A stretch of 24,000 nucleotides of DNA from Promethearchaeota archaeon (GCA_019894715.1 JAGXOA010000248.1:1-24000); one strand, 5' to 3'. Counted from the stretch's first letter, positions 1 to 15,668 are shown. Notes: a model not told the origin generated them from the sequence alone. Made by a program: numbers and translations.

Positions 1-513
1 GTTGAAAGAAGAGGCATCAGAGAAAAGACCAGTCATGATTTTAACACTAGAAACATCCCAATTTCCAATAGGTTGGTTGAAATCATAAGCTTTGTCAAAC
101 ATATTCGTCATGTCTGTAACGCTAGAAACATTCCAATCATCAATAGATTGGTTGAAAATAGAAGCATACGCAAACATATAAGCCATAGTAGTAACACGGG
201 AAACACTCCAATTACCAATAGGTCGATTGAAGGAAGTAGTACCTGCAAGCATACGATCCATTTGTTTAACGTTGGAAACGTTCCATTTTCCAATAGATTG
301 GTTGAATAAAGAAGCACCATGGAACATAAAGCTCATACTTGTAACGCTAGAAACTTCCCAATTACTGATATCTTGGTTGAAACTAGGAGCATAATAGAAC
401 ATCCCTCCCATATTAGTAACTCTGGAAACATCCCAATTACTGATATCTTGATTGAATGAATTAGCACCAATAAACATATAGTACATGTTAGTAACTCTGG
501 AAACATCCCAATT
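1..513 (-). repeat. Tandem coding repeat, 75-nt (25-aa) period, DUF285/BspA-type 'NW[DN]VS.V..M..MF..A..FNQ.I.' units, at least 6 full copies
   Basis: Units read from my translation: NWDVSRVTNMYYMFIGANSFNQDIS / NWDVSRVTNMGGMFYYAPSFNQDIS / NWEVSSVTSMSFMFHGASLFNQSIG / KWNVSNVKQMDRMLAGTTSFNRPIG / NWSVSRVTTMAYMFAYASIFNQSID / DWNVSSVTDMTNMFDKAYDFNQPIG / NWDVSSVKIMTGLFSDASSFN. Nucleotide strings such as 'gtaactctggaaacatcccaatt' recur 75 nt apart (415 and 490). Confidence 0.9.
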
Positions 514-1815
514 GTTCATAATTCCAGTAGCACCAAGACTTTGGCAACCTGAAAAAGCACGATACAAACTAGTAGTTCCTGTTAGATCTAAAGTATCAGA
601 CGCTGTAAGATTTAAATTAGTACATCCATTAAAGTAACCTCCAGAATTTCCTAAACGCATTGCGCCCCATTCTTTAATTTCAAGTAATTTTAATTTATCA
701 CCTCCACCATTAAATCTCCAACCAATTAAGATACCTTTAATTTCAATAGTGTAAACACCCTCTGACGCGTATGTATGAGTTATTTCTGGCTGATTATAGC
801 TCAAAATTCTATTGTTGTTTCCATCACCCCAATTTACTGTAAAATTATAGATACCTCCCAATTCTAATGGTAATTTAATTTGATTGCTTGAACTGGAACC
901 ACCAGAACCACTAAACGAAGTATTCCATTCAGTTACAAATGTTAAATCGAGATCTATTATATCCATAGTAAAGGTTAAGGGAGTTGTTCCTATATTTCCC
1001 ACGGAATCATTAGCCCAGACATGTATAGTTTTTAATCCTTCAGTAAATGTGATATAATGTGCTGATGAGTAAATCACGTTTATGTTGTTCCAGTTGTACC
1101 AAATAGTATCGACAGCTACATCATCTGATGCTGAGATATTGAGTAATTGCGTGGGGAAATAATAAGTTGAATTCACAAGACTATTTATTTCTATTATTGG
1201 AACAGTTGTGTCAATGGTAAATGTTTCGGACGTTGTTCCTAAATGTCCAACAGAATCATTAACCCAGGCATGAATGGTGTTCAATCCTTCATTAAAGGTG
1301 ACTGAATCTTGGGAAGTATAAGTAAAATTTTCACCATTCCAGTTGTACCAAATAGTATCGACAGCAACATTATCTGAGGTTGAGATAGTTAGTAATTGCG
1401 TAGCGTTATTATAAATTGTATTCACAGGGGTCTCTATTTCCACTATTGGGTCAGTTGTGTCAATGGAAAATGTTACGGAAGTTGTTCCCTTGTTTCCCGC
1501 CGAATCATTAGCCCAGGCATTTATAATGTTTAAACCTTCATCGAAGGAGATATAATATGCTGAAAAGTAAGTTACATTTTCACCCTTCCAATTATACCAG
1601 ATTGTATCGACTGCAACATTATCTGATGCAGTGATTGTCAGTAGATGGGTAGGTGAATCATAAATAATATTCACAGGGCTATTTATTTCAACAGTTGGGC
1701 CATTTGTATCCTCTGTTGCTGAAGGAAAAAGAAATACAAGCACACCAACAATTGAACCTATGAAGATGATCAATGTAAAAGAAAAAATAGTTAATAAGAC
1801 TTTTTTTTTTATAAT
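1..1815 (-). CDS. Surface protein (3' end beyond window): N-terminal signal-anchor, 3 tandem Ig-like repeats, PKD-like segment, BspA/DUF285-type 25-aa repeats
   Basis: The minus-strand frame is uninterrupted from the window edge up to a TAA at 1833..1831. It is absent from the ORF track because it runs off the window. My translation: (I)KKKVLLTIFSFTLIIFIGSIVGVLVFLFPSATEDTNGPTVEINSPVN..., then 3 x 83 aa of '..SDNVAVDTIWYNWNGEN..NDSxGN.GTT..TF.IDTT', then 'VNWGDGNNN..THTYASEGVYTIEIKG', then repeated 'FNQDISNWDVSRVTNM..MF'. There is no in-frame ATG/GTG at the 5' end. Start taken as ATT 1815..1813 (GGTG + 7 nt); the alternative is TTG 1773..1771. Confidence 0.85.
   Translation of the reverse strand, partial: MIKKKVLLTIFSFTLIIFIGSIVGVLVFLFPSATEDTNGPTVEINSPVNIIYDSPTHLLTITASDNVAVDTIWYNWKGENVTYFSAYYISFDEGLNIINAWANDSAGNKGTTSVTFSIDTTDPIVEIETPVNTIYNNATQLLTISTSDNVAVDTIWYNWNGENFTYTSQDSVTFNEGLNTIHAWVNDSVGHLGTTSETFTIDTTVPIIEINSLVNSTYYFPTQLLNISASDDVAVDTIWYNWNNINVIYSSAHYITFTEGLKTIHVWANDSVGNIGTTPLTFTMDIIDLDLTFVTEWNTSFSGSGGSSSSNQIKLPLELGGIYNFTVNWGDGNNNRILSYNQPEITHTYASEGVYTIEIKGILIGWRFNGGGDKLKLLEIKEWGAMRLGNSGGYFNGCTNLNLTASDTLDLTGTTSLYRAFSGCQSLGATGIMNNWDVSRVTNMYYMFIGANSFNQDISNWDVSRVTNMGGMFYYAPSFNQDISNWEVSSVTSMSFMFHGASLFNQSIGKWNVSNVKQMDRMLAGTTSFNRPIGNWSVSRVTTMAYMFAYASIFNQSIDDWNVSSVTDMTNMFDKAYDFNQPIGNWDVSSVKIMTGLFSDASSFN
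961..1701 (-). repeat. Three tandem 249-nt (83-aa) Ig-like domain repeats inside the surface-protein gene
   Basis: Unit boundaries are 1701..1453, 1452..1204 and 1203..~961. Long near-identical DNA stretches occur, e.g. 'ccagttgtaccaaatagtatcgacagc' at ~1090 and ~1339, with a diverged copy at ~1588. Confidence 0.9.
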
Positions 1816-1822
1816 TATATTA

Positions 1823-1827
1823 CACCC
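1823..1827 (-). promoter_or_regulatory. Shine-Dalgarno-like GGGTG, 7 nt upstream of the proposed ATT start of the surface protein
   Basis: Minus strand reads TAA TTA GGG TGT AAT ATA ATT ATA AAA AAA AAA GTC. GGTG ends at 1823 and ATT sits at 1815..1813. Confidence 0.4.
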
Positions 1828-1899
1828 TAATTATTTTATAAAATCGAAACATAATAATATATTTTTATTATAATAATTAAATATTTGTGGTATCCTTAT

Positions 1900-2440: not shown

Positions 2441-2446
2441 ATTGAA

Positions 2447-2962
2447 ATTAATTTTGAACGAAAATTAGGTTGTATTGGTTCAGGTATTTTCTTATTATTA
2501 GGTATATATTTCTTTTTTGGATTAAATAATTTTACAGAATTTTCTTTTGATTTTTATTTCATAGGTCCCACATATTATACCACCCCAGATATAATACTTG
2601 TATATATAAGTGGTGGAACAACAGCAATTATCTCTATCATTTGCTTTATTTGCATTTTTCTTTCTTATGAAAATAAAAAAATTGGTTCTCAATTATTGGT
2701 AATAATGGGATTTTTATCTGTATTTCTAAATGTAATTCCTTATGCTACAATCACTTATTATGGTCATAATTTCTATGGTACTAGTACCCGTGATATTTCT
2801 ATATCCCTTTGTACAACATTATTTTTTATTCCAAATATATTAATTCTTCTAAGTGGCTTCTTAGAATTAAAATCTTATACAGAAGAAAGATATATTCTAA
2901 AAAAAACTATAATAGAGCTAGTTATATTAGCCAAGATTAGAAGTAAAGAAGTTATAGTTTAA
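2447..2962 (+). CDS. Small polytopic membrane protein (about 4 TM), function unknown
   Basis: The ORF track gives only 2696..2962 (TTG start). The same frame stays open back to a TGA at 2438-2440 and encodes clearly hydrophobic sequence: NFERKLGCIGSGIFLLLGIYFFFGLNNFTEFSFDFYFIGPTYYTTPDIILVYISGGTTAIISIICFICIFLSYENKKIGSQLLVIMGF... An 85-codon stop-free stretch is unlikely by chance in DNA this AT-rich. No canonical start exists in it, so ATT 2447 downstream of GGTGA is proposed. Confidence 0.6.
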   Translation: MNFERKLGCIGSGIFLLLGIYFFFGLNNFTEFSFDFYFIGPTYYTTPDIILVYISGGTTAIISIICFICIFLSYENKKIGSQLLVIMGFLSVFLNVIPYATITYYGHNFYGTSTRDISISLCTTLFFIPNILILLSGFLELKSYTEERYILKKTIIELVILAKIRSKEVIV

Positions 2963-3043: not shown

Positions 3044-4183
3044 CTATTTAGATTCTCCAAAAACTATGAAGGGAAATGAGTTTAGAAATAATCTATCAAT
3101 TTCTGGTTGAAGTTCATTTGAAGAAATCGCTTGATTATTAATTTTTTCAATAAGATACAGTGGCATTTTATTGATGAAATGTTCAATAGAAAAATCAAAT
3201 ACTTTTGTTGCACCATATGCAATAATAACAAGTGTTCCACCCAAACTAGGAAGTGATCTGAGGAAAAAATTAAATTTATCCGCTTGGATGTGCTCTAATT
3301 GAGCGTTTGGCCCTAAAGTCACACGGATAATACTTGATATAGCTGTTAATGCTCCTGAGACTAAGTTTTCATCATATTTAAATTCAGGTGTAAAAACCTC
3401 TCTATTATATACTGTAATTCCTGCTTTATTATATAAAATGATATTTTGAATTGGAAAAGGAAGACGGAAGATATAGTTAAAATTGATAATAAAATTAGCT
3501 AGAAGTAGGAATAACCCAATAAAAGTTATAATAATAATAATTAACATGAATAATATGTGTATAACGTTTAATTCCTCAGATATTGTTATAATTACCCAAT
3601 CAAATCCAGAATTAACATCATATAATCCAATAATAAATGCTAAACCAACAATAGCATAAATTATTCTGGAAATAAATAAAAATAGAATTCCAAAAAACTC
3701 TATTTTAACATCTGATTTATCAGTCATCTTATTAATTTTAGAAATAATAGTAAGTGCTTTAAAAAGAGCAATAGTAGCTCCAAGTCCTGTTAGAAATCTA
3801 ATGAATTGTAAAACTATTTCAAAATCCAATAAACCTATCGATTGTGCAATAATAAGAAATAAATTTAAAATTTGAAATCCAACCATAATACCAAAAAAAT
3901 ATGGATCAGGTTTTAATTTAGAAAGAGTTTCATAATGAACAAATATTAAGAAAAAAGCAAAACCTATCAATGAAAAAGATATTAGTCTACTAGTACCCGT
4001 AAATACCGATAATAATTGCCCGATTAGACCAATTAATACCGAAAAAGATAAATATCTAACAACTCCTCGTTTTTGACTGCTTTTATATAGAAAAATTAAC
4101 CAAATTGCTAATAAACTAAATATAATAAAAATTCCAATATATGAATTAATTGTATATAGTACATCACCTAGATTAAAAATCAT
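3044..4183 (-). CDS. Polytopic membrane protein (about 8 TM) with a C-terminal soluble alpha/beta domain, possibly roadblock/longin-like
   Basis: 379-aa ORF. The N-terminal 240 aa form successive hydrophobic helices. The C-terminal ~130 aa read 'IQNIILYNKAGITVYNREVF..ENLVSGALTAISSIIRVTLG..LEHIQADKFNFFLRS..TLVIIAYGATK..IEHFINKMPLYLIEKIN', which shows a beta-beta-alpha-beta-beta-alpha pattern. Confidence 0.8.
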   Translation of the reverse strand: MIFNLGDVLYTINSYIGIFIIFSLLAIWLIFLYKSSQKRGVVRYLSFSVLIGLIGQLLSVFTGTSRLISFSLIGFAFFLIFVHYETLSKLKPDPYFFGIMVGFQILNLFLIIAQSIGLLDFEIVLQFIRFLTGLGATIALFKALTIISKINKMTDKSDVKIEFFGILFLFISRIIYAIVGLAFIIGLYDVNSGFDWVIITISEELNVIHILFMLIIIIITFIGLFLLLANFIINFNYIFRLPFPIQNIILYNKAGITVYNREVFTPEFKYDENLVSGALTAISSIIRVTLGPNAQLEHIQADKFNFFLRSLPSLGGTLVIIAYGATKVFDFSIEHFINKMPLYLIEKINNQAISSNELQPEIDRLFLNSFPFIVFGESK

Positions 4184-4599: not shown

Positions 4600-5721
4600 T
4601 TAGGATTTATTATTCTCTTGTGTTTCTTTATCTTCATCCTCTTTATATGGGAACTCATGAATGTGATCTGGTGTTTCTGATTCAAAATCTTGGGCCGTAA
4701 ATTTATCAATACTACTTTCAAATACTTTTGTAACTTCATACTCTGGTTCTCTTCCCAATTCTGCCTCTTTTATAGCTTTATCTTCACTTGCTACTATTTT
4801 CTTAAAAGTAAGCTTAATTTCAGCAAATTCAACAATTCCTAATTTTCTTCCATATTTTCTTACATAATCTCCACTTGAATGTCTTATCAATTCATTAAAA
4901 ATCAATCCTGGAATTGTTGCTAGTAACATCATTATAACTAAGACAATCCATAAAGTTAGAATTGACGCAGCAACGATAAATTCTCCTGTATCAATTAATG
5001 TTTCGACCGTGTCTGTAATAATTGAAAAATACGTCACGATTACACCTATCCCCGCATAACCTTTTATTACAGTATGAAACCAACCTCCTACTGATTTTAT
5101 TACCATTGGTTCTGATATGGTTTTTACTTTCATCTCATTTGAATAAATTATACCCGAATTCTTTAAGAACCATATAGCAGCAAATAAAAACATTGAAATA
5201 AAAAATGTTACAGGTAACATGATTAATAAACCTAGGATTTGGTTAAATAATTGGTCAGTCTCACCTGTTAATGTTAGAAGATCATTTGATAGGAGGTTTT
5301 GGAATACAAAATCAGTACCTATAATTCTAGATGCAAGATTAGTAGCCAACATTAAAGCAAACATAATCGGAAAAAAACCTTTTCCGAAAAATCTAATTTC
5401 TGAAGTCTTTGATTTTTCTTGTATACCATAAATTAAATTTTTTCCTAATATTTTTTTATGAATGAATAAAAATAATGGAGCCAGTAAATAACCTCCTAAT
5501 AAATAACCGAAGAATCCAGCTACAGGGATAAGAATAGTGAAGACAAGTAGGAATTCCAATATCATAATTTTTCCAGGAATCCAAGGACTTAATTCATAAT
5601 CTAGTATAGTTGGGAAAAAGAAATACCATATTAGTGCTAAAGATAACCAAAATAATTCATAAACTCCAAAATATAAAAATGGTTTAAGATATTTCTTTAC
5701 AAAAAAAATTATTCTTTTCAT
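4600..5721 (-). CDS. Polytopic membrane protein with an acidic C-terminal tail, function unknown
   Basis: The ORF-track ORF is 4600..5751. I prefer ATG 5721..5719 (MKRIIFFVKKYLKPF...) because GGAGA lies 6 nt upstream (aaaGGAGAttaaaATG), inside the longer ORF. It has multiple hydrophobic helices and the C-terminus is 'EPEYEVTKVFESSIDKFTAQDFESETPDHIHEFPYKEDEDKETQENNKS'. Confidence 0.8.
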   Translation of the reverse strand: MKRIIFFVKKYLKPFLYFGVYELFWLSLALIWYFFFPTILDYELSPWIPGKIMILEFLLVFTILIPVAGFFGYLLGGYLLAPLFLFIHKKILGKNLIYGIQEKSKTSEIRFFGKGFFPIMFALMLATNLASRIIGTDFVFQNLLSNDLLTLTGETDQLFNQILGLLIMLPVTFFISMFLFAAIWFLKNSGIIYSNEMKVKTISEPMVIKSVGGWFHTVIKGYAGIGVIVTYFSIITDTVETLIDTGEFIVAASILTLWIVLVIMMLLATIPGLIFNELIRHSSGDYVRKYGRKLGIVEFAEIKLTFKKIVASEDKAIKEAELGREPEYEVTKVFESSIDKFTAQDFESETPDHIHEFPYKEDEDKETQENNKS

Positions 5722-5877
5722 TTTAATCTCCTTTAATTGCATTAGTTGCAATCAAAAAATCAAACAGATTATAAGAATTGATATTAATAAAGATTTGTAT
5801 AAGATTTTCTTTTTAAAATTAAAACTAAAAAAATGAATAAAAAAAATACTTTAACATGCTAATTTATATTAAGCATA

Positions 5878-6891
5878 TTATTTTTTTACGAGCTGAGACA
5901 TGATTTGTTTTATTTCATTATTTTTTGTAAAGTCTTCTAATTCATTAAGGCTTGTTGGTAAACCCACTCGGACACCTAATGATTTGCATTCTAAGTGAGA
6001 CATAGCTGCAGCAATTTTAGCTGTTTTCTTTAGAGAAAAATCATTTAAAGTGGAAATAAGAATTCCGCTCATGAAAGCATCGCCCGCTCCTGTTGTATCT
6101 TCTACAGGGCCTTCAAAAATAGTGCTTCTCACAGTATTTTCTCCATCAAATAAGAGAGATCCATTTTGTCCATCTGTTAAAGATATTAATTTAACACCCC
6201 AATCATATAGGGTTTCTAATATTTCAAATGAATCTTCTTTTTGTGTAATTTCTTTAGCTTCTTCTTTATTGAGTGAAATTACATCCGATTTTGATATCAA
6301 GATTTTTGCCCATTTTCTATTATGTGAAAGAATAGACATACTTGGTGCTGCAAAAACCTTTCCCCCTTTTCTTTTTGTAAGATCAATTGCTTTATCAATC
6401 GCTTTACAAGCTTCTTCGTTTGTTAAAGAAGTCCAAACAAAAGCTTTTATGTCATCAAATAACTCTTCTTTTATATCTTCTGGTTTTAATAGATTATTTG
6501 CACCTTTATATGCTAGGATACTTCTATCTTTACCCCATTCAGTTTTTAAAATTACAGAAAATGCTGTACTATCCTCATCTGTCTGAGTGATATCTGATAG
6601 ATCAACTCCTCTTTTTTTCATATCGTCCATGCATATTTGAGCTGAAAAATCCTTACCTAATATACCTAAATAAGCACTACGTAAACCTAACATTGCACAG
6701 TTTGATGCGATATTAGCAGCAGATCCTCCTGGAACAAACCTAACATTATCAACATTCATTTTACGACTATATTCAACCGCAGTATATTTCTTGATTGTAT
6801 TCTTATCAAGCAATTCAAATCTGAGAATATCATTAATTTGGATAATACAATCTAATGTACAACTTCCAATTGTAATAAGCTCTGGTTTCAT
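5878..6891 (-). CDS. PfkB-family (ribokinase-like) carbohydrate/nucleoside kinase
   Basis: 337 aa. Contains the 'VPGGSAANIA' N-terminal motif and the 'DTTGAGDAFMSG' C-terminal PfkB signature. GGAGA lies 8 nt upstream of the ATG. Confidence 0.9.
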   Translation of the reverse strand: MKPELITIGSCTLDCIIQINDILRFELLDKNTIKKYTAVEYSRKMNVDNVRFVPGGSAANIASNCAMLGLRSAYLGILGKDFSAQICMDDMKKRGVDLSDITQTDEDSTAFSVILKTEWGKDRSILAYKGANNLLKPEDIKEELFDDIKAFVWTSLTNEEACKAIDKAIDLTKRKGGKVFAAPSMSILSHNRKWAKILISKSDVISLNKEEAKEITQKEDSFEILETLYDWGVKLISLTDGQNGSLLFDGENTVRSTIFEGPVEDTTGAGDAFMSGILISTLNDFSLKKTAKIAAAMSHLECKSLGVRVGLPTSLNELEDFTKNNEIKQIMSQLVKK

Positions 6892-6989: not shown

Positions 6990-7364
6990 TTATATCATTA
7001 ATTCTAATTTTAATATATACTCTTGAATTGAAATTCCGTGTAATAAGGCATTATGAAGTAATCTTATATTAATTTTTTCAAGATCCTCTTGATCATTTAT
7101 TATAATATTTTCTTTTAGAATATAATCAAGATCATCAATCAAAGAATATTTTTCATAAGAAAACATTCCAAAATATCCTCCATATTTAGCCAATATGGAT
7201 AATAATAATTCTTTATCATCTTTATCAAAAGTTTTTTCACATTCATAACAAAACGGAATAAATAGAATCTCAGAATTGTATATTTTTGAAGAATTCAGGA
7301 TTTCAGAATGACAAATTCCACATTTTAATGGAATACTATCAAATTTGATATCTAAAACTTTCAT
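6990..7364 (-). CDS. Small zinc-ribbon (CxxC...CxxC) protein with a helical C-terminal half, function unknown
   Basis: 124 aa. 'LKCGICHSE...(21 aa)...FCYECEKTF' gives four Cys in two CxxC pairs. It sits 106 nt downstream of ESCRT-III on the same strand. Confidence 0.65.
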   Translation of the reverse strand: MKVLDIKFDSIPLKCGICHSEILNSSKIYNSEILFIPFCYECEKTFDKDDKELLLSILAKYGGYFGMFSYEKYSLIDDLDYILKENIIINDQEDLEKINIRLLHNALLHGISIQEYILKLELMI

Positions 7365-7470: not shown

Positions 7471-8097
7471 TTAATCTTTAGATTTTAGCCTATTCAGTTC
7501 CTTTTCAAGTTCATCAATCTTCTCGTTTGATACAACACTAGGTAGTGCACCTGTCATTTCTACATTAATTTCAGCATCAATTTCCCCTAGTATATTATTT
7601 ACTTGACTGTCTGTAACTGCTGTATCTAAAGTAATTCCGTCAATACCTTCCGCAGTAATTTCAGAAGTAACTTCGAAGTCTTCTATATCCATATTGATAT
7701 TTGTCATCATTTCTGTAATTTGAGGGATCGAAAGTGTAGCTTTAAGGGTCGCAACTGATTGAGAAATATTTTTCATAATTCCTGCAACATCGCTAATAGC
7801 ACTTGCTTGTTCTAATTTAAATAATAGTCCTTCTAAATTAGTTCGAAAAGCATCAATAGATCGAGCCTGTTTTTTTACTTGTAAATAATTACGTGCATGG
7901 AATTTTGATCCATCCATATCTCCTTGTTGTCTTAGCCTAACTGCTTTATCTCTGGCTAGTTTTGAAGTCATTTCTAACTTTTTTGCTTGTCGTAACAATC
8001 TTTTGTTAAAAACCTTTAACTTTATTGTTGCAGAACGAATATTATCAGCTTTCTTGCCTCCAGATAACCAACCACTAATATCTTTTAAAAATCCTAT
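7471..8097 (-). CDS. ESCRT-III (Snf7/CHMP family; Vps2/24/46-like with C-terminal MIM1-like helix)
   Basis: The ORF track gives 7471..7998 from an internal TTG. The frame is open up to a TGA at 8106..8104 and encodes (M)GFLKDISGWLSGGKKADNIRSATIKLKVFNKRLLRQAKKLEMTSKLARDKAVRLRQQGDMDGSKFHARNYLQVKKQARSIDAFRTNLEGLLFKLEQA... This is the basic N-terminus plus alpha1-alpha2 hairpin typical of ESCRT-III, followed by an acidic C-terminal half ending 'IDELEKELNRLKSKD'. Start proposed at ATA 8097..8095 behind GGTGA, giving 208 aa. Confidence 0.9.
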   Translation of the reverse strand: MGFLKDISGWLSGGKKADNIRSATIKLKVFNKRLLRQAKKLEMTSKLARDKAVRLRQQGDMDGSKFHARNYLQVKKQARSIDAFRTNLEGLLFKLEQASAISDVAGIMKNISQSVATLKATLSIPQITEMMTNINMDIEDFEVTSEITAEGIDGITLDTAVTDSQVNNILGEIDAEINVEMTGALPSVVSNEKIDELEKELNRLKSKD

Positions 8098-8103
8098 AAG
8101 AGA

Positions 8104-8108
8104 TCACC
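8104..8108 (-). promoter_or_regulatory. Shine-Dalgarno GGTGA upstream of the ESCRT-III ATA start
   Basis: Minus strand reads ttttttaGGTGAtctcttATAggattttta. That is GGTG, then 7 nt, then ATA. The TGA within GGTGA is the in-frame upstream stop, so only TCT, CTT or ATA can precede the conserved N-terminus. Confidence 0.55.
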
Positions 8109-8681
8109 TAAAAAATTATTATTCTTTTTATAATATATATAAAATCTAATTATATAAAATTATTTTCGGAGTCCAATTTTCAAATTTCTCTATTGAAGAA
8201 AAAATTTGAAATAATGTTCAATATATATCAAAATAATAACTTCTATTTGGTGATTATTTTTCTTCATTTTTCATTTTCTCATAATTTTTAATGAAGACAT
8301 AGATATGTTTAATTTAGTGATTGCTTATAGAAAAAAAAGTGATAATGAAAAAACATTTCAATTGCATTTTCAAAAACCTTCCTGTTGAACTCCCTTTCAT
8401 TATCTTCAACACCCGTAGAAGTGTTCTGGTTGGATTAATGCAACTGTAATTTCTGGCAATAAAACTCTTTGGGATAGAGAACATAGTGGAAATCCTTCCA
8501 TAAGCTCAAGATCCAAAAAAAATTTAAAAATATAAATTTAAAAAAAGTGAAAAATTCTTGATTTTTATAACTGATTATATGTTTTTATAAATTTAGCAAA
8601 CAATTAAAATAATAATTTAGATTGTTATAATAATAAATAACAAAAATTTTCTAAAATAATAATTATTTAAGGTAAAGTGAA

Positions 8682-9896
8682 ATGTCCTCTGTAGATTCAA
8701 AATTATATCAGTTTGCTGTACAGGAAGCAAAAGAAGCTGTTGCATTAGATGCTAAAGGCCAGTTTAAACTAGCAATCGTAAAATATCAAAGAGCGGCAGA
8801 AAGTTTAATTCAGTTTATAAAATTTAGTAAAAATCATATTATGAACCAGAAATGTAAGGCTCAAATAGGAGAATATCTTGAACGTGCTAAGGCACTAAGA
8901 GATCATATTGGTGGATCTCGTTCAAAAAAGAGTACACAAAAGAAATCTGGCAGTAAACCATCCGATGATAAAAGGGAAGAAGAACCTGAAAATATTTCAA
9001 ACGAAGAGCAAGACTTATTCGATATGGTTTCTGGAACAATTATAACAGAATCACCTGAAATAAGATGGAAAGATATAGCTGGACTAAGTGATAGTAAACA
9101 ATTAATAAGAGAAGCAATAGTATTACCCATCTTAAAACCAGAATGGTTTACTGGAGTTGTTAAACCTTGGAAAGGAATACTCTTATTTGGTCCTCCTGGG
9201 TGTGGTAAAACACTATTAGGAAAGGCAGCTGCATCAGAAATTAAAGCTACTTTTTTTGGTACTTCTGCATCTGATTTATTAAGTAAATGGCTTGGAGAAA
9301 GTGAAAAATTAATTAGTTCTTTATTTAAATTAGCTAGAATAAAGGCTCCAAGCTTAATATTTATGGATGAAATTGATGCTATAGCAACAAGAAGAGGGGG
9401 ATCTGAAAGTGGGGGTGAAAGAAGGGTAAAAACACAATTATTAAGTGAAATTGAAGGTTTAAAAACATCTCATGTTAAACCATTATTAGTAATTGGAGCT
9501 ACTAATCATCCATGGGATTTAGATAATGCTATTCTTAGTAGATTCCAAAAACGAGTTTATGTACCACTACCAGATATGGAAGCTAGAACAGCAATATTTA
9601 AAATTCATACGAAAGGTGTAAATATGCAAATAGAAGATGATGATTTTGTAGAACTTGGAGTACGCTCAGAAGGATATTCTGGAAGAGATATTGCTAATAT
9701 TTGTCAAGAAGTTGTAATGCTTCCTATTCGGGAAATAGATATGAAAGGTATTTTAGAAGACCCAAATTTGGATATAAAGAGGAGAGATGTTAATATCAAT
9801 GATTTTAAAAAAACTCTTAAAAAATCTAAACCCGTATTGTACAAAGATGATCTGATGCAATATGATAAATGGGAAGAAAAATATGGCCAAACTTAA
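8682..9896 (+). CDS. vps4: Vps4 / CdvC-type AAA+ ATPase (N-terminal MIT domain, AAA domain, Vps4 C-terminal helix)
   Basis: 404 aa. The N-terminal three-helix MIT-like region is 'LYQFAVQEAKEAVALDAKGQFKLAIVKYQRAAESLIQFIK..IGEYLERAKALRDHI'. Walker A is 'GPPGCGKT' and Walker B is 'SLIFMDEIDA', followed by 'GATNHPWDLDNAILSRF' and a C-terminal 'YDKWEEKYG'. Confidence 0.95.
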   Translation: MSSVDSKLYQFAVQEAKEAVALDAKGQFKLAIVKYQRAAESLIQFIKFSKNHIMNQKCKAQIGEYLERAKALRDHIGGSRSKKSTQKKSGSKPSDDKREEEPENISNEEQDLFDMVSGTIITESPEIRWKDIAGLSDSKQLIREAIVLPILKPEWFTGVVKPWKGILLFGPPGCGKTLLGKAAASEIKATFFGTSASDLLSKWLGESEKLISSLFKLARIKAPSLIFMDEIDAIATRRGGSESGGERRVKTQLLSEIEGLKTSHVKPLLVIGATNHPWDLDNAILSRFQKRVYVPLPDMEARTAIFKIHTKGVNMQIEDDDFVELGVRSEGYSGRDIANICQEVVMLPIREIDMKGILEDPNLDIKRRDVNINDFKKTLKKSKPVLYKDDLMQYDKWEEKYGQT

Positions 9897-9921
9897 TTAA
9901 TCTAATACTTGTTGCATAAAA

Positions 9922-10869
9922 ATGGAAAAACAAAGAGAAAGAGCAAAAGAAGTCTCGAAAGAGATTAAGCAAAAGACAGATAAAGAATTAGATAGGCTCA
10001 GAAATGAGCTTGAAAGATTAAAAAAGCTTAAAGAGCAAAAGCTAAAAGAAGAAGAAGAACCAAGAAAGAAAGAATCAGAAGAAGAAAAAATTGTATTTAT
10101 TCCTCAAGAAGATAGTGGAACTATGGAAGAAATTACTCCTGATCTCAACATAGAAACTACAGGAATCGAAAAAATTGAGGAAAAACTGAGTGAAATGGAT
10201 GAATTTCTAAGTAAAGAATTAGAACGAATTGATCATAAAACCTATGAAAAAAATGCAGAATATATTGAATCCCAACTAATTGAATTAGAAAAAGAGATTG
10301 TTGGAGAGACTGGACTTATTAAAGAAGAATTAAGTCCATATGAAAAATTATTGGAAAATCATCCGTGGCTTGAGGAACCTAGATATGAATATATGTACCA
10401 TATCCCAAATAAAACTAAAAATCCCAATGATTTTGAATCTTGGCAAGATGAATGGGGAAAAGTATTATTTGACTATGCAAGATATGCAATTTTACATATT
10501 CTCTACTTAACAAAATTATATAGTGAAGATCCTTTCTCTAAATTTAAGAATCGCAAAAAAGCTATAAAAGAAATTGCAGATAAATTGGTTGTTGATGAAT
10601 TAGGAGAATGGTTATCAAAAAAACAAGATAAGATTCGAATTTATTGGAAAACTTTAGATATTTGGGCAGAAGAGATATATGATTGGGTTTATGAAATGGG
10701 TAAACTTGATCCAATACTTATTTATGAAATTAGAGATGCAAATCAAGAATTTAGTTCTCTTCCTAAAGAAGAAATAGAAAAAATATTTAATCTACTCAAT
10801 AAAGATGGGAAAGGAAAGATTATCAAAACAACTGATGGTCATATTGCTTTTAAAATAAAAATTGAATAG
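9922..10869 (+). CDS. Vps25-like ESCRT-II subunit (tandem winged helix) with a ~150-aa charged coiled-coil N-terminal extension
   Basis: 315 aa, starting 26 nt after the vps4 stop. The C-terminal ~165 aa read 'FESWQDEWGKVLFDYARYAILHILYL..DPFSKFKNRKKAIKEIADKLVVDELGEWLSKKQDKIRIYWKTLDIWAEEIYDWVYEMGKLDPILIYEIRD..EFSSLPKEEIEKIFNLLNKDGKGKIIKTTDGHIAFKIK'. This follows the Vps25/EAP20 pattern as I recall it (W..li..Y; F.N..i.R.l; aEW; iyW+s..eWa..Iy.wv; yEl; L..L.k.GKa; g.KF). The N-terminus 'MEKQRERAKEVSKEIKQKTDKELDRLRNELERLKKLKEQKLKEEEE..' is K/E-rich heptad-like sequence. Confidence 0.75.
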   Translation: MEKQRERAKEVSKEIKQKTDKELDRLRNELERLKKLKEQKLKEEEEPRKKESEEEKIVFIPQEDSGTMEEITPDLNIETTGIEKIEEKLSEMDEFLSKELERIDHKTYEKNAEYIESQLIELEKEIVGETGLIKEELSPYEKLLENHPWLEEPRYEYMYHIPNKTKNPNDFESWQDEWGKVLFDYARYAILHILYLTKLYSEDPFSKFKNRKKAIKEIADKLVVDELGEWLSKKQDKIRIYWKTLDIWAEEIYDWVYEMGKLDPILIYEIRDANQEFSSLPKEEIEKIFNLLNKDGKGKIIKTTDGHIAFKIKIE

Positions 10870-10882
10870 TTTATTAAAATTT

Positions 10883-11608
10883 TTATAATGATGGGAAAAA
10901 CCATTGCTTTCCTTTCAATATAGATTCTCTAAATTTTGCGAGTCCACTATCTTCTAATGACTTTAATGCCCTAAGAGACCTATCCTGGGTCCAATTTAGA
11001 TCATTTATAATATCTTCTAATAAAATAACACCTTTACCTTTATCTTTTACTATTTCAATTACTTTCACCTGATCAGCAGTGTATTGGATAGGAAAAAACT
11101 GAACCATGATGGCTCCTGAATCTAGTTTTTTAACATCCTCTATTACACCTTTTTTTTCGAGAAGATTCATGGCCTTTACCACATCACTGAGATCTACTCT
11201 ACCTTTTAAATCTCCTGTATTCACAATATCAAAGATCTCTGATAATGGCAATAAACCTACACCTATTTCCTCTTTTCTAAGGAGTATGCGCTGATATGCT
11301 AACATACCTAAATTATTTAAATTCATTTTATTTAATTTCTTACCTAAAACATCAATTTCCTTTATTTGTTCTTTAATTATTTTTGAAGAAGGGATATTAT
11401 ATTTTTTTTGTAAATATTCAACTTCTTCTTTTAAATCTGGATTTAAAGCTAAAATAACACCATGATTTTTTGCCATTTCATCAATCTTATCCTTTGTTAG
11501 ATTCTTCACTGAAGCTTTTGCTTCCATTTCTTTAAATTTTAATTCTGTACCTTTTTTTCTCATGGCTTCTCTAAGATCTATCTCATTTTCAATCTTTCTT
11601 ATACCCAT
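10883..11608 (-). CDS. EAP30-domain ESCRT-II subunit (Vps22/Vps36-like)
   Basis: The ORF track starts at TTG 11623. I prefer ATG 11608 (MGIRKIENE...), which has GGTG 9 nt upstream. The C-terminal two winged helices read 'GVGLLPLSEIFDIVNTGDLKGRVDLSDVVKAMNLLEKKGVIEDVKKLDSGAIMVQF..ADQVKVIEIVKDKGKGVILLEDIINDLNWTQDRSLRALKSLEDSGLAKFRES..KGKQWFFPSL', matching the EAP30 pattern that ends in 'yWFPsl'. Confidence 0.8.
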   Translation of the reverse strand: MGIRKIENEIDLREAMRKKGTELKFKEMEAKASVKNLTKDKIDEMAKNHGVILALNPDLKEEVEYLQKKYNIPSSKIIKEQIKEIDVLGKKLNKMNLNNLGMLAYQRILLRKEEIGVGLLPLSEIFDIVNTGDLKGRVDLSDVVKAMNLLEKKGVIEDVKKLDSGAIMVQFFPIQYTADQVKVIEIVKDKGKGVILLEDIINDLNWTQDRSLRALKSLEDSGLAKFRESILKGKQWFFPSL

Positions 11609-11686: not shown

Positions 11687-12259
11687 ATGGTACTCTTAAC
11701 TGACTTTAGGCTGTTAAATAATATTGAAAGAAAAATTATTAAAAAAACATTCTTAAAAATCTCAAAAGAACTCATTTCTTTTTTAGATATAAACTTAGAT
11801 TATTTATATATTTTAATTGATAAGAATAATAAATTAAAACCTTTTCCTGAAATATATTACTATCATAATCTATCAAAATATATAATTGAACAATTTAAAT
11901 CTAATATTTACTATGCTGGTATTTATTTTGGTTTTATTAAAAGAGGAGATTTCTATCTGAGCCTTGAATGCATTGAATTTATTGACAATAAAAAATTAGT
12001 TCCAAAAAAAATAAAAATAAAGGTTAACGAAAAAGCTGAAAAATCTATTTTATATGGAAATAATATCAAAAAAAAGATGATATCATCATTATCAGACCAT
12101 ATTGAAAAAGACAATTATATTATTATCTATAACAAATTTAATGAATTAATTGCTTTAGGCTATTTAATAATAAATACTAATGAGATTAAAGACCTTCAAG
12201 ATAATAGGGATATTGCTCTAAATCTAATTGATAAAGGTTATTTTCTAAGAAATCAGTAG
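11687..12259 (+). CDS. NIP7-like protein (N-terminal alpha/beta domain + C-terminal PUA domain), ribosome large-subunit biogenesis factor homologue
   Basis: 190 aa. 'FRLLNNIERKIIKKTFLKISKELISFL...YAGIYFGFIKRGDFYLSLECIEFI..KIKVNEKAEKSILYGNNIKKKMISSLSDHIEKDNYIIIYNKFNELIALGYLI..DIALNLIDKGYFLRNQ' parallels yeast Nip7 from memory (R.LTeeE.k.vf.kl; lG.clGkFtK.gkF.L.i..L; v.v...ge..FLYGn.v.k..v......i.....vvv......PLGfG; D.GeYLR). Confidence 0.7.
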   Translation: MVLLTDFRLLNNIERKIIKKTFLKISKELISFLDINLDYLYILIDKNNKLKPFPEIYYYHNLSKYIIEQFKSNIYYAGIYFGFIKRGDFYLSLECIEFIDNKKLVPKKIKIKVNEKAEKSILYGNNIKKKMISSLSDHIEKDNYIIIYNKFNELIALGYLIINTNEIKDLQDNRDIALNLIDKGYFLRNQ

Positions 12260-12266
12260 TATATAT

Positions 12267-12782
12267 TCAAGCCTTTTCTAATGTTTCTTTAAGACGATTA
12301 AGATTTGAGATATACTCTTCACGATATTCCCAATTAGTTCGTAATTCTGATGAAATAATTTCTCTATCAAGAGCTAACTTTATTATTGGTTTTGCCTCCT
12401 TTTCAATAAGGCCTTCATCAACTAACTGCCCAAATCCTGTAGCAATAATAGATATATCTAAAATAAAAATATATTGTTCATCATCAAAATCTTCATCATA
12501 TATTTGTGAACTCAATAGATGAATATCCAATAAGTTGTCATTATAATCCTCAAAATTCATATCGCCTACATCTTCTATTACCCAAATTAGAAAATCTATT
12601 ATGAATTTATCTAGATTCTCACGTCTCCATTCTCTATATTCTGCTAATGCAGTATCTCCTTCATCACTTCCAAAAGGTGATAGTTCATCAACACAATTCC
12701 AAAAGAAATCATCTGGAATCAATTCTATCGCTCTAGGATGAGCAAATTCTTTTCTAATTCCATATCTTTCTTCATCATCCAT
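12267..12782 (-). CDS. Acidic cytoplasmic protein, function unknown
   Basis: 171-aa ORF, strongly D/E-rich, with a conserved-looking 'IPDDFFWNCVDELSPFGSDEGDTALAEYREWRREN' N-terminal segment. I cannot assign a family. Confidence 0.7.
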   Translation of the reverse strand: MDDEERYGIRKEFAHPRAIELIPDDFFWNCVDELSPFGSDEGDTALAEYREWRRENLDKFIIDFLIWVIEDVGDMNFEDYNDNLLDIHLLSSQIYDEDFDDEQYIFILDISIIATGFGQLVDEGLIEKEAKPIIKLALDREIISSELRTNWEYREEYISNLNRLKETLEKA

Positions 12783-12827
12783 AATTAAACAACATTAGAT
12801 TGATTTTTATGCTTATTATTAATTAAA

Positions 12828-13742
12828 TTAAAAATTTTTACCTTTTTTTTTTATTAGACATATAAAAAAACCAATTGTATCATGAATATGTGGAAAAAAT
12901 CGTTGAGAAAATTTTAAATCATTTTTTAATTGCTTTCCTAATACTTCAGTAAATCCAGACACCCCATATTGATTCTCTATTTTAATAACTTTTAAATTGT
13001 TTGTCTTTTTCAAAATGTTATTAATAACCATTTCATTTTCCTCAGGAGCAATGGAACAAGTACTATATAATAATAATCCCTCATTTTTCAACAATTTTAT
13101 CCCAGATAGCAATAATTCTTCTTGAATTTTAGCCATTTTTTTTATATCTACAAGAGTTTTATTATTTTTCCTTTTTGGATCATCTCTTATTAATCCTTCT
13201 CCTGTACATGGTGCATCTAACAATATTTTATCAAATTTTAAATCAAGATCTTGTAAATTCCTCGCATCCTCATTTATGACTATTGCATTATGAATTCCCA
13301 TTCTCCGTAAATTAAAGACTAAAGCTGGAATTCTTTTTTTATTTCTCTCTATCAAAATTAATTTTCCTTTATTCTTCATAATTTGTGCTAAGTGTGTTGA
13401 TTTTCCTCCTGGTGAAGCACACATATCTAATACAAGCTCATTTAGATTAGGATTAAGTATATATGGTGGGAGCATAGATACCTTATTTTGAATATAGAAG
13501 TAACCTTGTAGATATTCATGAAGTGAACCTAAATTTAGTGATTCTTTTTTGACACCAAAACCATAAGGTATCCAATCTATCCTTTCTAAACTAAATTTTA
13601 ATTCTAAAAATCTTGATTTTAGCTCTTCGGGTGTAATTTTTAAAGTATTAACTCTAATAGATGGGTTTGATTTTATTTCATTAGCTTTTAATAACTTCTC
13701 TGTATCATCAATTCCAAAGAAATTAAGATATCTTCTAATCAT
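12828..13742 (-). CDS. NOL1/NOP2/Sun-family RNA cytosine-C5 methyltransferase (Nop2/NSUN/RsmB-F-like)
   Basis: 304 aa. Contains 'IRVNTLK', the SAM motif 'VLDMCASPGGKSTHLAQ', 'ILLDAPCTGEG' (motif IV Cys), 'LLYSTCSIAPEENE' (motif VI Cys) and 'GFFICLIKK'. The frame stays open 40 codons upstream of the ATG (see findings). Confidence 0.92.
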   Translation of the reverse strand: MIRRYLNFFGIDDTEKLLKANEIKSNPSIRVNTLKITPEELKSRFLELKFSLERIDWIPYGFGVKKESLNLGSLHEYLQGYFYIQNKVSMLPPYILNPNLNELVLDMCASPGGKSTHLAQIMKNKGKLILIERNKKRIPALVFNLRRMGIHNAIVINEDARNLQDLDLKFDKILLDAPCTGEGLIRDDPKRKNNKTLVDIKKMAKIQEELLLSGIKLLKNEGLLLYSTCSIAPEENEMVINNILKKTNNLKVIKIENQYGVSGFTEVLGKQLKNDLKFSQRFFPHIHDTIGFFICLIKKKGKNF

Positions 13743-13897
13743 GTAATTGGAATATCCATATTTTTTAGCAAGTTCATCTGCTATATTAAGATTATTTATA
13801 ATATTAAACCAACCCAGAATTTTTGATATTACAAAATTATTATTTAAAATAAATATTATTTATTCTTAATTAAATATTAAATAAAGAATTGATATTT

Positions 13898-14497
13898 ATG
13901 ATTGAAGTTGAAATTAAAATACCTCTTCCAAATCCAGAATTTATCAAAGAAGAGTTAAAAAAAATGAATGGGCAATATATATGCTCCCTTATACATGAAG
14001 ATACTTATTATAATATGCCTGAAAAGCTAAGAGATTTTAAAGAAACAGATGAAGCTTTAAGGATAAGAAAATCCATAAAATTTAATAAACATCATAAAGA
14101 AGAATCTCAAATATCTAACACGTTTCTTACTTATAAAGGTAAGAAAATTGATATAGAAACAAAAACAAGGAAAGAATTAGAAACAAAAGTAGAAGATGGA
14201 GAAAAACTTAGAGAATTACTTAATATTTTAGGTTTTAGAGAAGTATTAACTGTTAAAAAAGAGAGAGAATTGTTTAAACTAACTTATAAAGATTATGATA
14301 TTGAGATTCTATTGGATTATATCCCAGTACTACAGAAATATTTCCTTGAAGTGGAATATATAAGCCCCAATGAAGAAAAAATAGATATGATTAAAGCTCT
14401 CTTGTTTGAATTTTTAGGAACTTTAAATATAACAAAAGCAGATTCTATAAGAAAATCTTATCTCGAATTAATCATAGAATCATTCTCTAATTCATAA
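13898..14497 (+). CDS. CYTH-domain protein (class IV adenylate cyclase CyaB / triphosphatase-like)
   Basis: The track ORF starts at TTG 13889. I prefer ATG 13898, giving 'MIEVEIKIPL' with the N-terminal ExExK signature. Further matches are 'EALRIRK', 'TYKGKK', 'TRKELE' and 'LEVEYI'. Confidence 0.85.
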   Translation: MIEVEIKIPLPNPEFIKEELKKMNGQYICSLIHEDTYYNMPEKLRDFKETDEALRIRKSIKFNKHHKEESQISNTFLTYKGKKIDIETKTRKELETKVEDGEKLRELLNILGFREVLTVKKERELFKLTYKDYDIEILLDYIPVLQKYFLEVEYISPNEEKIDMIKALLFEFLGTLNITKADSIRKSYLELIIESFSNS

Positions 14498-14534
14498 TAG
14501 TTTTTTATTTATTCGAGGTAATTGCTTAGATTAA

Positions 14535-15668
14535 TTAAATTATATCCTTTTTTACTATTTCATGAGGACATATTGAAATAGAGTGATTTGTTGGAGAAAT
14601 TATTTTAATATTTTCATTAACTTGAACATATGAAGAGATAATTACAAGATTTTTTTTATTACCTTTTAATGTAGTATTTTTATTTATTATACTATGATCA
14701 GCAATTATAGATTTTAAAATATCTGAATTCTCTGAAATAATTACATTTTTATAAATTAAAGAATCCTTGATTTTACAGTGATTTCCAATTTCAACATTTT
14801 CACCTATAATAACATTTGGTCCAATAATACTGTCTTTTCCAATTTTTACATTCTTACCAATTGTTATCGGAGGATCTATTTTAACATTAGAATTAATTTG
14901 AACATTTTTATCAATAATGTTTTTCTCATTATTATTTCTTTTATCTATTATATCTTTCATAAATAAGATATTGCCTTCTAATAATTGAAAAGGTAGACCA
15001 ATATCCTTCCAAATACCTGTTATTGGATAATGAGAAAGCTTATTCTCCGATGCAAGAATAGGAAATATATCTCTCTCAAGAGATAAATTTTTATTAGATT
15101 GAATATATTGAAAAATTTCTGGTTCTAGTATGTAAATCCCCGCATTTACTGGCATATCTGAATTGCCGTGTATTGAGGGGTTGAAATTATCTTTTTCTAA
15201 AAATTGTGCTATTTTTTTTTTTTTATCTGAAATCAGAACACCATACCTTGATGGATTTTTTACTGTTCTGCTTGCTATTAATCCGATATCATCCTTTGTG
15301 TTATGTGTATCAAGCATTTTTTTAAAAACAAAATTGATAATGATATCTCCATTTATCATGAAAAAATTATCATTGTCTAATAATTCTTCTGCTAGTTTTA
15401 ATGCTCCTGCGGTTCCCATGGGTTTTCTTTCATTTGTATAGTGAAGTTTTAATCCCAATCTATCCCCATTTCCAAAATAATTACTTAAATACTCGGACAT
15501 GACACTTACCGCAAGGACAATCTCTTTTACTCCTGCTTCTTTTAAAAGTAACATTAATCTTTCAATAACAGGAATATTTACTACTGGAACTAAGGCTTTT
15601 GGAGTTGTACAAGTAAGTGGACGTAATCGTGTTCCCCAACCACCTGATAGAATTATTGCTTTAGTCAT
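14535..15668 (-). CDS. Sugar-1-phosphate nucleotidyltransferase (NDP-sugar pyrophosphorylase) with a C-terminal left-handed beta-helix
   Basis: 377 aa. The N-terminal signature is 'AIILSGGWGTRLRPLTCTTPKALVPV', followed by 'GTAGAL' and 'NGD'. The C-terminus carries hexapeptide-type repeats ('IGKNVKIGKDSIIGPNVIIGENVEIGNHCKI'). Confidence 0.92.
   Translation of the reverse strand: MTKAIILSGGWGTRLRPLTCTTPKALVPVVNIPVIERLMLLLKEAGVKEIVLAVSVMSEYLSNYFGNGDRLGLKLHYTNERKPMGTAGALKLAEELLDNDNFFMINGDIIINFVFKKMLDTHNTKDDIGLIASRTVKNPSRYGVLISDKKKKIAQFLEKDNFNPSIHGNSDMPVNAGIYILEPEIFQYIQSNKNLSLERDIFPILASENKLSHYPITGIWKDIGLPFQLLEGNILFMKDIIDKRNNNEKNIIDKNVQINSNVKIDPPITIGKNVKIGKDSIIGPNVIIGENVEIGNHCKIKDSLIYKNVIISENSDILKSIIADHSIINKNTTLKGNKKNLVIISSYVQVNENIKIISPTNHSISICPHEIVKKDII

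Follow-up and report, generated by a model that had tools for sequence, protein, structure and literature searches.

A core ESCRT locus, very probably of a low-GC Lokiarchaeon, with a probable ATA start in its ESCRT-IIIB gene

Gene content and layout of the locus

[quoted passage not shown] The DNA is AT-rich (23-35% GC) and densely coding on both strands. Four adjacent open reading frames (ORFs) encode an ESCRT-III protein, the ATPase Vps4, a Vps25-like protein and an EAP30 protein. Pfam domain calls were judged against curated cut-offs, and all four ORFs exceeded them, in agreement with the gene identities proposed in a preliminary description of this DNA. Very probably these genes make up the conserved core ESCRT locus of an Asgard archaeon, a Lokiarchaeon of low GC. 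There is little doubt as to its content: an operon of vps4 and vps25, one ESCRT-IIIB gene divergent from it and a Vps22/36-like gene convergent with it. The four genes constitute a known, already published Lokiarchaeial locus, and the sequence is already present in GenBank with generic annotation.

The ESCRT-IIIB gene (Vps2/24/46, CHMP1-like; Pfam Snf7) occupies 7471-8097 on the minus strand and comprises 208 codons from a probable ATA start at 8097-8095. A Shine-Dalgarno-like AGGTGA, read from the sequence, lies 6 nt upstream of this ATA (8104-8109, minus strand). ESCRT-III and vps4 are divergent, with 584 nt of intergenic DNA (8098-8681) between them. The vps4 gene (8682-9896, plus strand) encodes an AAA+ ATPase of 404 amino acids (aa) and is followed on the same strand by the gene for the 315-aa homologue of the ESCRT-II subunit Vps25 (9922-10869). 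The 241-aa Vps22/36-like (EAP30) subunit is encoded on the minus strand at 10883-11608. Both of these last assignments were based on Pfam (ESCRT-II and EAP30, respectively), AlphaFold2 models and Foldseek searches. The 13 nt previously reported between the convergent vps25 and EAP30 genes were confirmed, while the vps4-vps25 gap, given before as 26 nt, measured 25 nt. The earlier reading of vps4 and vps25 as an operon was upheld, as the two genes are co-directional and spaced by 8-27 nt in five relatives. Rfam and tRNA scans of the window found nothing. A scan for sigma-70 promoters and terminators, which is not applicable to archaea, gave counts no higher than those in shuffled sequences, and a candidate cis-motif shared 5' of ESCRT-IIIB, vps4 and EAP30 (AATTWAGATT) was rejected, with 38 matches against 42 expected by chance.

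The Vps4 and ESCRT-II proteins

Each of the four Pfam domains of Vps4 scored over its cut-off (AAA 137.8, MIT 41.9, AAA_lid_3 35.4 and Vps4_C 28.7 bits). The MIT domain spans residues 12-73 and the AAA domain residues 166-296, followed by the lid and Vps4_C. Yeast Vps4 and human VPS4B align to the protein over its full length (E 1e-88 to 1e-90), and the translation has an intact Walker A motif (GPPGCGKT), Walker B motif (IFMDEIDA) and pore loop (KWLGESE). When genome contigs were searched with this protein, one true orthologue (in the relative designated L007) was recovered, the other matches being mostly partial AAA-module matches from unrelated archaea and bacteria, of no help for taxonomy.

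The preliminary description stood or fell with profile matches of the two putative ESCRT-II subunits, and both were found. The Vps25-like protein scored 48.4 bits against Pfam ESCRT-II/Vps25 (PF05871; cut-off 27) and the EAP30 protein 35.3 bits against PF04157 (cut-off 26.8). Matches of the Vps25-like protein in the PDB included 9uyv, an "ESCRT-II complex subunit" (E 1.7e-51), and the tandem winged-helix Vps25 of Odinarchaeota, 7pb9 (E 1.1e-23). The former is probably the crystal structure of MK-D1 VPS25 reported in bioRxiv 10.1101/2025.11.01.685982, where a tandem winged-helix fold and an N-terminal extension are described. An AlphaFold2 model built with 40 orthologues had a pLDDT (predicted local distance difference test) of ~90 over residues ~139-315, which form tandem winged helices, and its top Foldseek matches were the Odin, human and yeast Vps25 proteins (target-normalised template modelling (TM) score 0.65-0.73). 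As modelled, with low to moderate confidence, the first ~135 residues comprise a long charged helix, a disordered acidic linker and a pair of helices. The sequence of this extension is kept in the 40 Lokiarchaeial orthologues of ~290-335 aa, and N-terminal additions of Asgard Vps25 have been published (PMC10936438; bioRxiv 10.1101/2025.11.01.685982).

For the EAP30 protein, the best sequence match in the PDB was human SNF8/Vps22. Its layout is a helical N-terminal region followed by two winged helices (AlphaFold2 mean pLDDT 80.6). Among the top five Foldseek matches of the model, human and yeast Vps22 came first, followed by Vps36 (E 1e-7 to 3e-5), with TM scores of only ~0.4 that reflect differing domain orientations. 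Its start was placed at ATG 11608, and not at TTG 11623, because every orthologue begins with MGIRKIE. Steadiness-box-like helices fused to the N-termini of Asgard Vps22 and Vps25 have been described (PMC10936438), and in the models obtained here both proteins have helical N-termini, of low to moderate confidence only. The earlier statement that ESCRT-II winged-helix subunits occur outside eukaryotes in Asgard archaea only was too strong, as Vps36-like proteins with duplicated winged helices are reported from some euryarchaeal ESCRT neighbourhoods (PMC10936438).

Class of the ESCRT-III protein

The ESCRT-III protein scored 56.5 bits against Pfam Snf7 (PF03357; cut-off 27.3), with a match covering profile positions 5-170 of 171. 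Searched as a single sequence, its best PDB matches were CHMP1B and CHMP2A, in alignments that continue upstream of the first canonical start codon. A profile of 25 orthologues gave CHMP1B (1e-12) and CHMP2A (2e-11), then CHMP1A, Vps24 and CHMP3. No eukaryotic Snf7, CHMP4, CHMP6 or Vps20 chain was found at E<=10 in the PDB in either the single-sequence or the 25-orthologue profile search. The protein was assigned to the Vps2/24/46 (CHMP1-like, ESCRT-IIIB) class because CHMP1B, CHMP2A, CHMP1A, Vps24 and CHMP3 were matched and no eukaryotic chain of the Vps20/32/60 class was; the assignment thus draws on matches to eukaryotic proteins and on the names in the literature.

In the alignment with CHMP1B, a C-terminal helix (EKIDELEKELNRLKSKD; 7474-7524, minus strand) is MIM1-like and is the presumed binding site for the MIT domain of Vps4. 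The MIM1 helix follows the consensus (D/E)xxLxxRLxxL(K/R). The C-terminus of the protein, IDELEKELNRLK, aligns with the MIM1 region of CHMP1B and is conserved across the 25 orthologues; it agrees with the consensus at the three L positions and at K, and E replaces the central R.

Genomic context and taxonomic assignment

All four proteins are already deposited. The Vps25-like protein and the EAP30 protein occur with identical sequences as the "hypothetical proteins" KGD63_13710 and KGD63_13715 in a metagenome-assembled genome (MAG) labelled "Candidatus Lokiarchaeota archaeon", and the ESCRT-III and Vps4 proteins correspond in GenBank to MBY9007791.1 ("Snf7 family protein") and MBY9007792.1 ("AAA family ATPase"). 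Hundreds of relatives with 50-90% identity are labelled Lokiarchaeota or Promethearchaeota. The placement of this DNA within the Asgard archaea, made previously from the sequence alone, is borne out by these identical deposited proteins.

Neighbourhoods were compared in five relatives, L007, L088, L090 (1.18-Mb contig), L091 (1.83-Mb contig, GCA_019058415.1) and L092, over flanks of up to 10 kb on each side, or less where the contig ended. The order pfkB, ESCRT-III (reverse), vps4, vps25, EAP30 (reverse) and NIP7-like PUA gene was common to all five, as were the genes that follow, for an RsmB-type methyltransferase, a CYTH protein, an NTP-transferase, a metallo-beta-lactamase-fold protein and a phosphorylase. 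In the window these fixed neighbours are found at 5878-6891 (pfkB kinase) and 11687-15668 (NIP7-like pre-PUA/PUA, RsmB/NSUN-type methyltransferase, CYTH and NTP-transferase). Their constancy is probably plain synteny and not a functional link.

No second Snf7, Vps28, UEV/E2, ubiquitin or CdvA gene was detected among the other ORFs of the window by Pfam, or among intergenic stop-to-stop ORFs. Unannotated ORFs of the window gave no ESCRT-I or ubiquitin Pfam match even at E<=10, and the gaps contain no ubiquitin-sized ORF. The absence of a second ESCRT-III gene, of ESCRT-I genes and of ubiquitin from the window, as previously noted, was therefore confirmed by the Pfam scans and the gap ORFs, and it extends over the contig beyond the window, to position 33,803. 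The single Snf7-family gene in the 33.8 kb is a property of the locus, not of the organism. Nor was any further ESCRT, ESCRT-I or ubiquitin gene present in the flanks compared in the five relatives. The preliminary description had regarded the absence as a notable difference from other Lokiarchaeota; this was not sustained, as the same island with the same neighbours was found in all five relatives. Hatano et al. likewise placed the ubiquitin and ESCRT genes of Lokiarchaeota in two separate regions, with ESCRT-III and Vps4 linked most tightly to Vps25 and Vps22 usually close by (PMC9192718). Because the same island recurs in relatives and the published surveys match, the compact four-gene island is the normal Lokiarchaeial state.

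Other ORFs were also considered and rejected. A 124-aa protein just downstream of ESCRT-IIIB (6990-7364, minus strand), which combines a CxxC...CxxC zinc ribbon with a helical tail, had no Pfam or NCBIfam match and was not retained as an ESCRT-I or adaptor protein; it is not part of the module. It is 59% identical to a protein of L092 which stays with pfkB and not with ESCRT-III. L007 and L091 lack it at this position, where L090 has an unrelated 170-aa protein. The membrane ORFs of 171 aa (12267-12782), 379 aa and 383 aa, together with the other unannotated ORFs, had no family match at E<=10. Further along the contig, an ORF of 81 aa was rejected as ubiquitin, its sequence being rich in Cys and unlike that protein.

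Start codon of the ESCRT-IIIB gene

The first ATG, GTG or TTG of the ESCRT-IIIB ORF is TTG 7998, and the first ATG is at 7971 (Met43). Homology to CHMP1B and to the orthologues extends 33 codons upstream of TTG 7998, towards an in-frame TGA at 8106-8104. Where orthologues have ATG-GGT-TTT (MGFLKD...), the window has ATA-GGA-TTT, with the ATA at 8097-8095. This ATA is preceded by AGGTGA and then 6 nt (AGGTGATCTCTT-ATA in the native sequence), and the AGGTGA includes the in-frame TGA at which the upstream frame ends. The same ATA and Shine-Dalgarno motif were found in two other species, represented by L088/L089/L095 and by L092-L094. An assembly error was rejected as the source of the ATA, the same codon being present in three species and in assemblies made independently (ENA, Logan, NCBI and JGI), as was an upstream ATG or a frameshift, there being no ATG in any frame within ~60 nt upstream and stop codons closing all frames. 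The ratio of non-synonymous to synonymous substitution (dN/dS) over codons 2-42 was ~0.07 at a dS of 0.75-1.1 among the three ATA species; this stretch is under purifying selection, like the rest of the gene. TTG 7998 is not conserved and is replaced by TTA in L088.

The start position was surveyed in 85 ESCRT-IIIB orthologues, and a GGTG/GGAG-type motif was sought at -3 to -16. The codon there was ATG in 74 orthologues, ATA in seven, GTG in two, ATC in one and ATT in one (L169, with a GTG three codons upstream). The Shine-Dalgarno-type motif was present in 10 of the 11 non-ATG orthologues, the exception being L169, and in only one of the 74 with ATG. ATA with the motif was carried by the window and by L088, L092, L095, L097, L129 and L135, and ATC with the motif by L168; in these the motif lies 4-8 nt upstream. 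The ATA loci are split, in a neighbour-joining tree, over at least four clades that are nested among relatives with ATG. On one possible reading, ESCRT-IIIB has switched repeatedly, in at least four clades, from an ATG lacking a Shine-Dalgarno site to an ATA or ATC start led by one, which would suggest that the rate at which this polymer-forming protein is translated is under selection.

Public gene calls for the clade are all shortened, to 156-175 aa, including those from TTG 7998 (175 aa, MBY9007791.1) and ATG 7971 (166 aa), and all eight members of the 90%-identity cluster of ESCRT-IIIB, the window protein included, are N-terminally truncated. Translation of ESCRT-IIIB most likely begins at the ATA, placed there by the strong Shine-Dalgarno site, and for this reason the annotated proteins of 166 and 175 aa are most likely N-terminally truncated artefacts, 33-42 residues short. 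Constructs for expression or modelling based on the deposited ESCRT-IIIB proteins (166-175 aa) would be defective, as half of helix alpha-1 and the N-terminal motif are missing.

The ~80 nt 5' of ESCRT-IIIB (8098-8180, minus strand) read TTGGACTCC, then TATA-like runs, then the AGGTGA. They are 94-96% identical among the window, L088 and L092 species, against only ~65% identity at third codon positions, and look like a constrained promoter or 5' leader. The spacer between ESCRT-III and vps4 measures ~200 nt in L092, ~450 nt in L088 and 584 nt in the window, where the additional sequence is flanked by a 21-nt motif present in two copies (8227-8247 and 8603-8623), 81% identical to each other. 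In the 584-nt spacer no Rfam family was found and the longest stop-to-stop ORF has 63 codons.

Alternative explanations

The genes might be a cell-division locus of the Cdv type (CdvA/B/C) from a TACK archaeon and not a eukaryote-type ESCRT locus, and the ESCRT-III and Vps4 proteins do have weak to partial matches to NCBIfam CdvB and CdvC, with a PDB match to a "CdvB, Vps2 like" chain at E 3e-6. The NCBIfam scores are, however, far under the equivalog cut-offs (CdvB 21.7 bits versus 370; CdvC 280.2 versus 650), and the ESCRT-III protein is not CdvB, nor the ATPase CdvC. No ORF of the window matched a CdvA family in Pfam and none was listed for the rest of the 33.8 kb, so that the nearby cdvA gene that would have spoken for this alternative was not found. 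Two bona fide ESCRT-II winged-helix genes adjoin, and the proteins are deposited under Lokiarchaeota; a Cdv locus is effectively refuted and its probability very slight. Slighter still is that of eukaryotic DNA or a chimera mis-assembled from a metagenome, which might be considered for proteins with clear eukaryotic homologues and is already refuted. The genes are free of introns, densely packed on both strands, led by Shine-Dalgarno sites and of 23-35% GC, the same contig sequence was recovered in independent assemblies, and synteny is kept. All of the nearest relatives are proteins of Lokiarchaeial MAGs, with 50-90% identity compared to 18-30% for eukaryotic and Odinarchaeota chains. The lineage might instead have a reduced, stand-alone ESCRT system, having lost ESCRT-I, ESCRT-IIIA and the coupling to ubiquitin, as the 33.8 kb yielded none of their genes. 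Against this, the compact island occurs without them, over flanks of up to 10 kb on each side, in all the relatives examined, including those on Mb-size contigs, and Lokiarchaeota are reported to have their ubiquitin genes in a separate region (PMC9192718) and many ESCRT families (PMC10936438). With the same island in relatives and the dispersal of these genes in Lokiarchaeota, absence from one contig is therefore uninformative on the genome; such a reduction is improbable, and, by comparison with other Lokiarchaeia, the ESCRT-IIIA, ESCRT-I and ubiquitin genes would be expected at other places in the genome. Missing ESCRT-I or ubiquitin genes on such a contig should not be taken as loss.

A more serious alternative, though still an unlikely one, is that ESCRT-IIIB is decaying, or is made as a truncated protein from TTG 7998 or ATG 7971, after the ancestral ATG had changed to ATA. 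There is no ATG, GTG or TTG between the upstream stop and codon 35, and both gene callers and PGAP picked downstream starts. Against it stand the constraint on codons 2-42 in three species that all have the ATA, the TTA of L088 in place of TTG 7998, the alignment of the 33-42 missing residues to helix alpha-1 of CHMP1B, and the consensus AGGTGA 6 nt upstream, a pairing which recurs in independent clades. Initiation at the ATA is preferred here. Several points nevertheless weigh against the overall reading of a typical ESCRT-IIIB locus with an ATA start. The orthologue profile scored the Asgard chain 9fn1 ("Vps20/32/60-like", 1e-5) slightly above the Heimdall ESCRT-IIIB chain 9ftl (4e-4), and these two Asgard-labelled entries, with opposite labels, are similarly weak and fail to discriminate the ESCRT-III class. 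The co-occurrence of the Shine-Dalgarno motif with non-ATG starts had a Fisher p of 4e-11 that is uncorrected for phylogeny, and initiation at the ATA is itself deduced from sequence comparison. No ESCRT-IIIA partner is present on the contig as read, a complete pathway in the genome being assumed, and the formation of a complex and membrane scission are attributed to the module by analogy with homologues.

Proposed function and likeness to known systems

By that analogy, a dimer of the Vps22-like subunit together with Vps25 would form an ESCRT-II-like adaptor on the membrane, and Vps25 would recruit and nucleate ESCRT-III filaments, by which the membrane would be deformed and cut. The MIT domain of Vps4 would then grip the C-terminal MIM-like helix of ESCRT-III, and its AAA ring would use ATP to remodel or disassemble the polymer. 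Yeast two-hybrid interactions of Lokiarchaeal Vps22 with itself, of Vps25 with ESCRT-IIIB and of ESCRT-III with Vps4 have been reported (PMC9192718).

The closest known counterpart is the Lokiarchaeial core locus described in Lokiarchaeum, in "Ca. Prometheoarchaeum syntrophicum" MK-D1 and in MAGs (PMC9192718, PMC10936438), which has the same four gene families. Shared features are a vps25 gene that adjoins vps4 co-directionally, a Vps22-like gene next to vps25, the lineage-typical N-terminal extension of Vps25 (~120-170 aa) and, in five contigs, the same flanks. The window represents a species-level orthologue of this locus (identity of 50-80% for Vps25 and 64-89% for the Vps22-like protein) and differs from it in the probable ATA start instead of ATG and in the enlargement of the ESCRT-III/vps4 spacer to 584 nt. 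ESCRT-IIIB and vps4 diverge in the window, as they do in every Lokiarchaeial relative examined, whereas vps25, vps4 and ESCRT-III are typically co-directed in Asgards (PMC10936438). The locus adds one more orthologue of the Lokiarchaeial island that lies behind the view of an Asgard origin of eukaryotic membrane remodelling.

"Ca. Odinarchaeum yellowstonii" LCB_4, Heimdall- and Helarchaeia have homologous Vps25 (7pb9, 30% identity), Vps22, ESCRT-III and Vps4 proteins. In these lineages ubiquitin, E1/E2, ESCRT-I, -II and -III and Vps4 genes are in one cluster (PMC9192718), compared to ESCRT-II, ESCRT-IIIB and Vps4 only in the window. With eukaryotic ESCRT the locus shares the tandem winged helices of Vps25 and Vps22, the Snf7 fold with a putative MIM1-like helix at the C-terminus, and the MIT-AAA-Vps4_C architecture. 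It differs in having a single Vps22/36-like gene and no Vps36 bearing a GLUE/PH domain, a long N-terminal extension of Vps25, one ESCRT-III protein versus 7-12 eukaryotic paralogues, and an identity of only 11-20% in ESCRT-II. The CdvABC system of Thermoproteota (TACK) likewise has an ESCRT-III-family protein beside an MIT-AAA ATPase; unlike it, the locus lacks CdvA and has ESCRT-II winged-helix genes, and its CdvB and CdvC equivalog scores are far under the cut-offs.

Other non-canonical starts and neighbouring genes

A second probable non-canonical start, supported by a homologue, was found in a neighbouring gene. The stop-to-stop ORF 2441-2962 (plus strand, 173 codons) encodes a multi-pass membrane protein, and its first canonical start is at codon 85; the gene caller gives only the last 85 aa of the protein encoded by 2447-2962. 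A GGTGA motif, followed by 6 nt and an ATT at 2447, leads this ORF (171 codons from the ATT; feature 2436-2962). In the alignment with P0242, a homologue of 169 aa (E 3.8e-11), residue 2 of the homologue is matched to residue 2 of the ATT-started translation (MNLSEKLGLIGS versus INFERKLGCIGS), and the ATT coincides precisely with the homologue's Met.

Only the two starts, ATA in ESCRT-IIIB and ATT in this neighbouring gene, exceed existing knowledge, and both are probable readings of the sequence. As to the broader claim, the chances are about even that AUA and AUU are genuine initiation codons in this low-GC Lokiarchaeial lineage when a strong GGTGA Shine-Dalgarno site precedes them. A literature search found no description of such starts in archaea, which is weak evidence of novelty. 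If the ATA and ATT starts are real, they would document non-canonical initiation in Asgard archaea and, possibly, a control of ESCRT-III dosage, and standard gene callers would systematically truncate such proteins in Asgard databases.

At the left edge of the window, off which it runs, is the gene of a DUF285 surface protein (1-1830, minus strand) with four DUF285 (BspA-like) repeats (408 bits) and three N-terminal repeats of ~90 aa. The first canonical start (TTG, codon 19) falls within its N-terminal signal-anchor helix and would cut it, and upstream there is GGGTG-N4-ATA; this is a possible third non-canonical start, an unverified candidate. Further genes of the window include a cytoplasmic PAS-PAS sensor (19272-21185, plus strand) with a C-terminal HATPase_c domain, in which no HisKA or transmembrane region was detected, and two multi-pass membrane proteins of ~380 aa (3044-4183 and 4600-5751, both on the minus strand) that matched nothing in Pfam or NCBIfam, even at E<=10, and have soluble C-terminal domains.

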